From contig CAZSWO010000001.1 of NCBI GenBank assembly GCA_964611115.1, positions 20,309 through 84,308 on the forward strand: a stretch of 64,000 nt of DNA, in the 5' to 3' direction. The notes under the pieces are model-generated. The model saw only the letters and a program-made list of their open reading frames with translations. It had not been told where the DNA came from and searched no databases. Positions 2 to 42,537 of this stretch are shown in pieces; positions within the stretch are counted from its first letter, which is position 1, and the number at the start of each line of letters is the position of its first letter. Source of the DNA: an uncultured Gammaproteobacteria bacterium (GTDB lineage: Bacteria > Patescibacteriota > Patescibacteriia > Patescibacteriales > Patescibacteriaceae). Position numbers and translations under genes: made by a program.

Positions 2-997
2 TCGGCCGAAACGAATCGCCCGACGAATTAAACGGCGGACAATATAGCCTTGATCGGTATTTGACGGACCGACTCCCCTTTCGTCGCCCATAATAAAGGT
101 CGCGGCCTTAAGATGATCAGCAATAATTTCAAAGGATCGATTATCGTCTTCATACTTTTTACCCGACATGTCTTCAAGCTTGATAATGGCATCATTGAAT
201 AAATCGGTTTGGAAAACATTGCCCTTGCCTTGCAATGCCATTGATAAGCGTTCGAGTCCCCCGCCGAAGTCGACGTTCTTGCTCGCCAATTCTTTCCAAC
301 CATCTTCCGTTTTTTGATATTGCATGAAGACCGAATTACCGATTTCAATATATTTTCCGCAATCGCAGTTAACATGGCATTTCTCGCCAAACTTCGGATC
401 ATGAGCCTTGCCAGTGTCGTAAAAAGTTTCCGAGTCCGGACCGCCGAGCTCACCGACTGCGTCGCCACGCTGCCACCAATTTTTCTCGCGATACTCGAAG
501 ACTCGGTCATTGTCATCGACGCCGTACTTGTTAAAAATCTGTTTTACTATTTCAATTGATTCCGTATCCATCGGAATTTGTCCGTCTTCGGAGCCGCTGT
601 AAACCGTTTGATATAAACGATTCGGATCAAGCTTTGATTCTTCTACTAAAAACTCATACCACCAATTCAATTGCTCTGATTTCCAGTAGCCTGCCTCGGT
701 CGGCATGGCAAGGCCACTACCGAGCGACCAATTACCAAGCATTTCAAAGAAAGTGTTGTGACGATTGTCCCCAACTTCATCAATATCCTCGGTTCTAAAT
801 GATTTCTGGCTATTAACCAGTTTATTGCCAGCCGGATGTTTAGCGCCTAGTAAATACGGCACTAAGGGAAACATTCCGGAGTTAACAAAGAGCAGGGTTG
901 AGTCATTTTCCGGCAGCAAAGAAGCGCTCGGAATAAGGGCATGTTCCCGCGCTTTAAAAAACTCAATATATTTAGAACGTATGTCTTTTGAATTCAT
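2..997 (-). CDS. alaS: Alanyl-tRNA synthetase, N-terminal part (runs off the window edge)
   Basis: Manual translation from ATG at 997: MNSKDIRSKYIEFFKAREHALIPSASLLPENDSTLLFVNSGM...RHNTFFEMLGNWSLG...VDFGGGLERL...ADHLKAATF...GYIVRRLIRRAIR. Open to the edge with no stop, so absent from the ORF track. Confidence 0.97.
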   Translation of the reverse strand, partial: MNSKDIRSKYIEFFKAREHALIPSASLLPENDSTLLFVNSGMFPLVPYLLGAKHPAGNKLVNSQKSFRTEDIDEVGDNRHNTFFEMLGNWSLGSGLAMPTEAGYWKSEQLNWWYEFLVEESKLDPNRLYQTVYSGSEDGQIPMDTESIEIVKQIFNKYGVDDNDRVFEYREKNWWQRGDAVGELGGPDSETFYDTGKAHDPKFGEKCHVNCDCGKYIEIGNSVFMQYQKTEDGWKELASKNVDFGGGLERLSMALQGKGNVFQTDLFNDAIIKLEDMSGKKYEDDNRSFEIIADHLKAATFIMGDERGVGPSNTDQGYIVRRLIRRAIRFGR

Positions 998-1000
998 ATC

Positions 1001-1029
1001 TTGACTTTATCTTGTTTTTACCATATTAT
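1001..1029 (+). promoter_or_regulatory. Sigma70-type promoter divergent from alaS
   Basis: TTGACT (1001-1006), 17 nt, TATTAT (1024-1029); predicted start about 1035-1037. Confidence 0.7.
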
Positions 1030-1035
1030 CAAGCC

Positions 1036-1172
1036 AGTTCTTTTTGATCTTGAAGCTTAAGTCAGCGGGGACAGTAAAAGCCGTCGGATCAAAAGACATT
1101 ATCTGCTCATCTCCCGTTCGGGTGAAGGAGCTCCGGGTGAACGCTTAGGCAAAGTCTTAAGCGTCACCTGTT
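1036..1172 (+). ncRNA. Candidate structured RNA or 5' leader, family not recognised
   Basis: Hairpins 1039-1096, 1111-1130 and 1136-1168. G-U pairs favour the + strand, and the first stem begins at the predicted transcription start. Confidence 0.45.
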
Positions 1173-1204
1173 TATATAGTACTTTCAAATAAATATAAAT
1201 ATAA

Positions 1205-1381
1205 ATGCCATTAAATCAAGTTGATGTGTTCAGCGATAATAAACCTGAACACGGTATTAATAATCATGTTGATATTTTCAAGCCAGCTTCGCTTATGCCT
1301 ATTAATGTTAATTCAAAGCTAGAAAGCATTGAAAAAACTAAAAAGCATATGGCAAAAGAACTGGAAGATAATCCACTATAA
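1205..1381 (+). CDS. Small hypothetical protein (58 aa)
   Basis: ATG1205 to TAA1381: MPLNQVDVFSDNKPEHGINNHVDIFKPASLMPINVNSKLESIEKTKKHMAKELEDNPL; not in the ORF track (shortest listed ORF is 60 aa); no SD. Confidence 0.45.
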   Translation: MPLNQVDVFSDNKPEHGINNHVDIFKPASLMPINVNSKLESIEKTKKHMAKELEDNPL

Positions 1382-1478: not shown

Positions 1479-1515
1479 CCCCGTGCAAGGACAGCTGCAC
1501 GGGGATTTTTTATTT
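1479..1515 (+). terminator. Rho-independent terminator
   Basis: CCCCGTGCA/TGCACGGGG stem followed by ATTTTTTATTT. Confidence 0.85.
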
Positions 1516-42465: not shown

Positions 42466-42537
42466 GGTCCCATCGTCTAACGGTTAGGACGCCAGGTTCT
42501 CATCCTGGTAATAGGGGTTCGATTCCCCTTGGGACTA
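42466..42537 (+). tRNA. tRNA-Glu (anticodon CTC), CCA not encoded
   Basis: Cloverleaf: acceptor GGTCCCA/TGGGACT, D arm GTC/GAC, anticodon arm CCAGG-TTCTCAT-CCTGG, T arm AGGGG-TTCGATT-CCCCT. Confidence 0.96.

Follow-up and report, generated by a model that had tools for sequence, protein, structure and literature searches.

A small non-coding RNA is encoded beside alaS, the gene for alanyl-tRNA synthetase, in a 64,000-nucleotide stretch of DNA (the window; contig 1, positions 20309-84308) from an ultra-small Patescibacteria bacterium whose 744-kb genome is assembled in 21 contigs, has 42.7% G+C and is 92.8% complete. The RNA is real, about 135 nt long, folded, promoter-driven and read from the + strand, divergently from alaS. 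The explanation that we favor, while judging it evenly poised between being right and being wrong, is that it forms a structured leader with a leaky terminator and heads the messenger of a 58-aa open reading frame (ORF). The unit would run from a promoter at 1001-1029 through the RNA (1036-1175) and the ORF (1205-1381) to a terminator at 1479-1504. Its promoter would lie back-to-back with that of alaS and overlap it; the transcript would begin with the boxA-like AGUUCUUU, which appears to head a few transcripts per genome across the order, and its 5′ end would be folded back into the base of hairpin 1. Hairpin 3, the last of three, would act as a weak intrinsic terminator, so that part of the transcripts end as an ~135-nt RNA and the remainder run on into the ORF. 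A first-pass annotation had proposed a promoter-defined structured RNA divergent from alaS and belonging to no recognized family; every sequence feature that it described was found in place, and its observation as a whole was confirmed.

The sigma-70-type promoter of the RNA, TTGACT-17-TATTAT, was the best of 5 promoter-like sites between positions 800 and 1700, where shuffled sequences yielded 2.7 ± 2.1 sites. It is interlocked with the promoter of alaS such that the minus-strand −10 overlaps the + strand −35 and the minus-strand −35 overlaps the + strand −10. With 6 nt between the end of the alaS −10 and the ATG at 997, alaS is probably leaderless. For comparison, alaS loci were taken from 18 of 20 genomes of the genus and read outward from the alaS start; one further locus was cut by a contig end. 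The block was kept beside alaS in 8 of the 18 loci, namely, the window's own, that of the closest relative (L107), L102, L008, L110, L105, L111, and L104, with the consensus TTGACT(T/C)TATC...ATA(T/A)TATCAAG(C/T)CA, and both minus-strand promoter hexamers were kept in all 8. A blastn search with positions 1000-1200 against 61 relatives matched 8 genomes including the window's own, all of one genus, over the first ~43 bases only (83 in the closest relative). This conservation passes the minus-strand −35 and enters GCCAGTTC, the first bases of the + strand transcript, as fits transcription from that strand. No ORF of note is present between 998 and 1204. A contig scan based on the alanyl-tRNA synthetase matched only distant contigs labeled Patescibacteria or Candidate Phyla Radiation (80 loci, ≤62% identity), and a pattern scan of metagenomes added 2 loci that, as far as they were read, did not differ from L107. 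The alaS open frames in the genus span ~595-658 aa; the usual bacterial enzyme is longer.

The RNA was predicted to fold with −46.4 kcal/mol on the + strand (z −2.69; 4/200 shuffles as good) and with −39.5 kcal/mol on the − strand (z −2.06; 6/200). A fold of the single sequence is thus only moderately better than chance, and the weight comes from comparison with relatives. The long imperfect hairpin (1039-1096), the CTCC-GGAG pairing (1111-1130), and the strong last hairpin (1136-1168) of the earlier annotation were all recovered, the first as hairpin 1, the second within hairpin 2, and the third as hairpin 3. The annotation had also suggested that covariation be sought among homologs adjacent to alaS, and compensatory changes were found in hairpin 3. 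Across 7 sequences its consensus helix has 14 pairs with 92.8% of cells paired, and 5 of the 14 pairs changed on both sides; none of 500 shuffles reached the covariation score or the percentage paired, slid controls were 43 to 52% paired, and 6/500 shuffles reached the count of doubly changed pairs. Because these 7 sequences come from about 5 independent lineages, the figures make the case look somewhat stronger than it is. An 8-nt direct repeat, CGGGTGAA, at 1119-1126 and 1134-1141 links hairpin 2 to the 5′ strand of hairpin 3 and would let CTCCCG (1111-1116) pair with either copy. The AAGGAG and three-codon mini-ORF to which the annotation had drawn attention are present in place, but neither is conserved in L107, L102, or L110, and in L107 the region that would carry them is wholly lacking.

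Polarity was assessed in the same comparison. The + strand was the more stable in 12/12 locus RNAs of congeners, and G-U pairs are kept in hairpin 3 (column pair 12-48 is GU in 5 of 7 sequences, and pair 21-40 is UG in 4 of 7) that turn into A-C on the opposite strand. Both results support the + strand call of the first-pass annotation. They also bear on the idea that the region is instead a minus-strand leader of alaS, such as a T-box, transcribed from a promoter-like site at 1219-1192 (−). That site does match 9 of 12 consensus positions, and the − strand does fold better than its shuffles; however, neither strand matched a T-box or other leader family, the conserved promoter abuts the alaS ATG, and the − strand is the less stable throughout and mismatched in hairpin 3, so we regard a minus-strand leader as very improbable.

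In contrast to the promoter block, the bodies behind it differ greatly. Their lengths are 145 nt as cut in the window, 105 in L107, 99 in L102, and 83 in L008, with longer bodies of 318, 324, and 271 nt in L110, L105, and L104. In L111, a small ORF lies directly behind the alaS-side promoter, and a 304-nt homolog of the L110 RNA follows the ORF from its own promoter. Within ~1 kb of alaS, three further loci (L103, L106, and L112) encode RNAs of 404, 286, and 178 nt, each delimited by a promoter and a terminator. All-against-all BLAST linked only the window RNA with L107 (41 nt, 80%), L110 with L105 and L111, L103 with L106, and L103 with L112, and the interiors of L102 and L110 are unrelated to that of the window RNA. 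A relative from a bioreactor metagenome (X4) keeps 1104-1198, including hairpin 2, with 17 differences and has 157 other letters in place of 1035-1103 (joint 1034>1104), whereas L107 has no hairpin 2 and shares the apical part of hairpin 1, AGTCAGCGGGGACAGTAAAAGC, at 80% identity over RNA nt 8-48. What is kept across the locus is the 5′ AGUUCUU start, the stem that pairs the 5′ end, and the last hairpin. AGTTCTT begins 6 to 7 nt after the −10 in the window locus, L102, L110, L105, L104, L103, L102b, and L111b; the start varies in L107 and L008, L106 carries an extension of 14 nt, and in L112 the start is absent. In the folds of the window RNA, L102, L008, L110, L105, and L111, the basal stem is formed between the 5′ end and an (A)AGAAC-like or GAC segment farther downstream; in L107 the 5′ end is left free.

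Such turnover excludes a conserved aptamer. The riboswitch-like element suggested by the first-pass annotation, in which hairpins 1 and 2 would be the aptamer and hairpin 3 the expression platform, has in its favor that the leader has three hairpins, the last of them terminator-like and followed by an ORF, and that a direct repeat would permit alternative pairing. Because the interior is replaced or deleted between congeners (hairpin 2 in L107, hairpin 1 in X4, and everything between the ends in L102 and L110), there is no conserved ligand pocket, and no Rfam family matched even at E ≤ 10; we give this possibility hardly any credence. The locus RNA is genus-restricted and very fast-evolving and appears not to be a ligand sensor.

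The same turnover could mark a functionless, shrinking remnant of a larger ancestral RNA (the locus RNAs of sister species measure 180 to 404 nt), still transcribed only because its promoter overlaps that of alaS and so cannot be lost. Orthologous promoter blocks head bodies of 83 to 324 nt that BLAST joins into three small groups, hairpin 1 is replaced in X4, and the −35 and −10 of the + strand overlap the −10 and −35 of alaS. A neutral remnant is nevertheless unlikely because hairpin 3 keeps its pairing through compensatory changes; the better + strand folds in all 12 RNAs also speak against it, as does conservation that reaches past the alaS promoter to the opening bases of the RNA. Genomes of 0.6 to 1.4 Mb usually drop idle stretches such as 140 bases.

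The 5′ motif was next followed beyond the genus, in 301 genomes of the order. The pattern TTGAC-N17-19-TANNNT-N5-8-AGTTCTT occurred in 146 of them with ~222 matches, compared with ~32 matches in 27 genomes for a reversed control pattern (hand count of the table). Being order-wide, the motif is not specific to the window RNA. Among 30 motif loci read, 7 of them homologous to one another, the base after the motif was T in 26, and downstream lay short mRNA leaders with a Shine-Dalgarno (SD) sequence and ATG, structured RNAs, and one long thrS leader that looks T-box-like by eye. AAGAAC followed downstream in only 3 of 30 unrelated loci with this motif at their start, and thus the complement is not general. 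Other sites in the window's genome (C14:5857, C4:10580, C5:38017(−), and C13:13110(−)) precede small or hypothetical proteins. At C4:10540-11980, a consensus promoter with GTTGTTCTTTAACAG stands ~1 kb upstream of the RNase P RNA with ORFs of 165 and 105 aa between them, and similar promoters occupy the same relative place in G001, G003, G014, G016, and G018.

We take the motif to resemble boxA of rRNA operons. Like the boxA/Nus leaders of rRNA operons and of E. coli suhB, the RNA has the U-rich motif followed by an A/U-rich segment at the very start of the leader; NusB is encoded in the genome (PF01029, 129 bits, C9:5177-5560), and one 16S leader of the order (L195) carries TGTTCTTTAACAAGA right after its promoter, with TGCTCTTTATACAA in that of L189. 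In the genus rRNA leaders inspected (G000 C14:20850-21208, L118, L170, and L171), a canonical boxA is replaced by AATTTGAAAACAC in the 16S leader and by TTTTTGAAAA(C/T) in the 23S leader, with no GTTCTTT in either. Among 28 16S leaders of the order, [AT]G[TC]TCTT[TA] was present in 2 and CTTTAACAA, whose second half the window RNA lacks, in 7, and 0 of the 30 motif loci precede rRNA. In G010, ~30 kb separate 16S from 23S, and each appears to have a promoter of its own. Elsewhere, boxA-like sites have been described ahead of numerous non-rRNA genes (Baniulyte et al. 2017, PMC5725501); by its own statement, that survey left non-coding RNAs aside.

To turn to the other end of the unit, the 58-aa ORF matches no Pfam or NCBIfam family but stays open at 58 to 64 aa in 6 species, in which its ends are conserved. 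In 4 of the 5 pairs compared, changes at third positions were the commonest (against L107, 22 versus 17 and 10), the exception being L110 versus L105 (11/9/9). Homologs were detected in its own subclade alone, in 5 genomes by search and in one more by eye, besides one doubtful match inside a 655-aa frame. The ORF has no SD sequence, and the next gene has one. It lies directly behind the RNA in 5 of the 8 promoter-block loci (the window, L107, L102, L110, and L105). In these 5, the T-run that follows the last hairpin is interrupted and never exceeds 3 T in a row, whereas 5 locus RNAs with no ORF behind them (L103, L106, L112, L102b, and L104) have 5 to 7 T. This contrast would fit read-through by design. 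In the window, the conserved G+C-rich hairpin and its T-run (1134-1170, TTTATAT) stand immediately upstream of the ORF, 34 nt from hairpin 3 to the ATG; a simple terminator scan did not list hairpin 3. Farther on, 1385-1512 is also structured, with a hairpin at 1409-1425, then GGAATGGCCGAAAG, then the terminator that would end the unit.

One transcript-derived sequence covers the junction. A metatranscriptome contig of 237 nt, with 0 differences and a depth of 2, spans 1139-1375, from inside hairpin 3 through the ORF. It is the only identical cover of a 4-kb stretch in that run, which is the only RNA run with sequence words of the stretch, and the other two pieces in the run are a conserved alaS segment from other organisms. 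The contig hints, weakly, that one RNA carries the 3′ half of hairpin 3 together with the spacer and the ORF.

A leader of this kind would resemble known intrinsic-terminator leaders and attenuators in being a promoter-proximal RNA with a G+C-rich hairpin and T-run just upstream of a small ORF, at which the transcript may stop or read through, as with small RNAs (sRNAs) that are released from 5′ untranslated regions. It differs from them in that no sensor was identified (aptamer, leader peptide, tRNA, or protein site) and in that the interior varies within the genus. The attenuator of the 58-aa ORF that the first-pass annotation envisaged is plausible, given the ORF behind 5 of the 8 blocks, the T-runs, and the RNA contig, but the RNA is not tied to the ORF at every locus.

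Several observations weigh against a leader for the ORF. In L111, separate promoters serve the ORF and the RNA, and behind the L008 RNA no ORF appears as far as the sequence was read; from this arrangement, the RNA is not bound to the ORF, and a stand-alone role is favored. The groups in the T-run contrast are clusters of kin and amount to few independent events. The RNA contig, at its depth of 2, comes from another habitat, can show neither ends nor strand, and could be DNA carry-over, and nothing in the RNA run covers 1036-1138. The start at 1036 and the transcript ends are themselves predictions. As for the 5′ motif, it appears to differ from the genus rRNA-leader element, so that it is at most a candidate Nus site, and the RNA-binding domain of Rho (PF07497) was not found in the genome at its 92.8% completeness, which removes the classical reason for a boxA. 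Partial termination, cotranscription of the ORF, and any Nus-factor role at the motif are likewise inferred.

A stand-alone sRNA would end at hairpin 3, at ~135 nt, and act in trans independently of the ORF, either through base pairing or through a bound protein. Its own consensus promoter and terminator-shaped last hairpin would suit this role, as would the separately promoted long homolog in L111, the RNAs of L008, L103, L106, L112, L102b, and L104 with no ORF behind them, and the apical loop of hairpin 1, which is the best-kept interior part between the window RNA and L107. On the other hand, the T-run after hairpin 3 is weak (TGTTTATAT), the RNA-library contig runs through hairpin 3 into the ORF, and interior change is too rapid for any partner to be conserved. 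The analysis turned up no conserved seed or target, although a genome-wide target search was not run, and the only conserved 5′ stretch is the order-wide motif, here paired in cis. An sRNA acting alone is in our estimate somewhat unlikely, and it is compatible with the leader unit as a second product of it. One candidate partner is alaS itself: TCAAAAGACAT in the 3′ strand of hairpin 1 (1087-1097) equals alaS nt 7-17 (981-991; E 0.047 in a small search), by which the RNA could pair with the alaS start. This pairing was rejected, as the 11-nt identity occurs only in the window's own genome and is absent from the other congeners compared.

A different proposal links the boxA-like start with the stem that the 5′ end forms with a site just before the terminator. 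By this proposal, the locus RNAs would form a class built like a miniature rRNA precursor, with the window RNA as a minimal member serving as a decoy or loading platform for Nus factors or ribosomal proteins, in a lineage apparently devoid of Rho and of the signal recognition particle pathway; we consider it improbable. In sister species, some bodies do contain rRNA-like segments. Within the 286-nt RNA of L106 (2458-2743(+)), a 46-nt segment copies 16S helix 16 and the beginning of helix 17 (score 50 versus a shuffle maximum of 29), and in it stem changes keep pairing, CCC/GGG becoming CUC/GAG in an alignment read by eye. The L103 RNA (406-809(−)) carries the same helix 16 module with a score of 31 (0/200 shuffles as high against the 16S of the window's genome and 1/100 against that of G010). 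A copy of the 530-loop helix 18 is present in L112 (1244-1421(−)) and L103, with a score of 40 in L112 (0/200 and 0/100 shuffles), and these two RNAs match over 30 nt at 90%. All three lie between a consensus promoter and a strong terminator and are possible rRNA mimics. In 16S rRNA, helices 16 and 18 neighbor ribosomal proteins S4 and S12, and the leaders of ribosomal-protein genes with autoregulatory sites for S4, S8, and S15 contain rRNA mimics. The helix 16 and helix 18 copies are alike to those leaders; the window RNA, with no significant 16S or 23S likeness and no ribosomal-protein gene behind it, is not. In addition, nt ~27-65 of the L103 RNA are a 39-nt, same-sense copy of codons ~55-67 of its own alaS (97%; 84 to 92% versus the alaS of four congeners). 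The coordinates of the features at the locus are collected in Table 1.

Table 1. Features at the start of alaS and along the divergent transcription unit (window coordinates)
Feature	Position	Strand	Remarks
alaS, 5′ part (alanyl-tRNA synthetase)	2..997	−	PF01411, E 9e-83
Sigma-70-type promoter TTGACT-17-TATTAT	1001..1029	+	10/12 consensus; TTGACT 1001-1006, TATTAT 1024-1029
Interlocked alaS promoter TTGATA-17-TAAAGT	1004..1032	−	9/12 matches
Predicted transcript start with 5′ motif AGTTCTTT (boxA-like)	1036..1043	+	6 nt after −10
Hairpin 1	1037..1097	+	From fold; basal stem pairs 5′ motif with GATCAAAAGAC (1087-1097)
Hairpin 2 with CTCC/GGAG; AAGGAG at 1125-1130	1105..1131	+	From fold; lineage-specific
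Hairpin 3, then TTTATAT	1134..1177	+	Stem 1134-1170; terminator-like, weak T-run; covariation
Mini-ORF GTG-AAC-GCT-TAG	1137..1148	+	Inside hairpin 3; judged fortuitous
58-aa ORF (ORF58)	1205..1381	+	No SD; probably headed by the RNA
Strong intrinsic terminator ending the unit	1479..1512	+	10-bp G+C-rich stem (1479-1504), then ATTTTTTATT; conserved in L107

Searches for a known family agreed with the first-pass annotation that none is recognizable. Over the whole window, Rfam 15 returned one tRNA only (42466-42537) and no family at the RNA; at E ≤ 10, positions 900-1600 gave 9 weak matches, none of them on the + strand within 1036-1175, and nothing was found at the RNAs in the relatives' loci. 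The fragmentary likeness to c-di-AMP, glycine, FMN, and 6S elements that had been noted earlier did not correspond to any such family at this permissive cutoff. Of these, 6S RNA (RF00013) deserves separate mention, since an abundant-type promoter and a small structured RNA are shared with it and its role is vacant, with none in 5 genus genomes; however, the window RNA forms three separate hairpins and not one rod with a central bubble, and the locus RNAs range from 83 to 404 nt, and so 6S was rejected for lack of a match and for the wrong shape. RNase P RNA, considered because the 320-nt relatives looked similar to it by eye, is present in full length elsewhere in 35 of 37 genomes (C4:11605-11980 in the window's own), and the genome's transfer-messenger RNA also lies elsewhere (C9:35423-35804). 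A 16S or 23S fragment, considered because 1124-1156 looked by eye like 16S nt 14-45, was discarded, as shuffles scored as high in 16/200 cases with the genome's own 16S, 6/100 with that of G010, and 11/100 with 23S; a blastn search of the window RNA against rRNA gave nothing at E ≤ 1.

Signal recognition particle (SRP) RNA was likewise rejected, with no model matched and no Ffh M domain or SRP54-type GTPase above the cutoff as a partner. Small and large SRP RNA models gave 0/5 genus genomes at E ≤ 1, the Ffh M domain (PF02978) was found in 0/5, and the SRP54-type GTPase (PF00448) gave only subthreshold P-loop matches in the window's genome and 5 further genomes, two of them single-contig; controls in these searches were detected in 11 to 14 of 14 genomes. 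The SRP pathway seems to be missing in the genus. A limited literature search returned nothing on SRP loss in Patescibacteria, and another, also limited in depth, returned no paper on an alaS-divergent RNA or on a start-site motif in Patescibacteria.

Taken by itself, the RNA is modest, one more lineage-specific structured leader or small RNA that has no family. Almost nothing is known of regulation at the RNA level in Patescibacteria, and here the RNA bodies transcribed from a single orthologous promoter differ almost entirely from species to species within one genus, some of them imitating parts of 16S rRNA. Roughly half of the order's 301 sampled genomes have a small group of transcripts that begin with the boxA-like 5′ motif. 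If the motif is a Nus-factor site in organisms in which Rho was not found, it would bear on antitermination roles besides opposing Rho.

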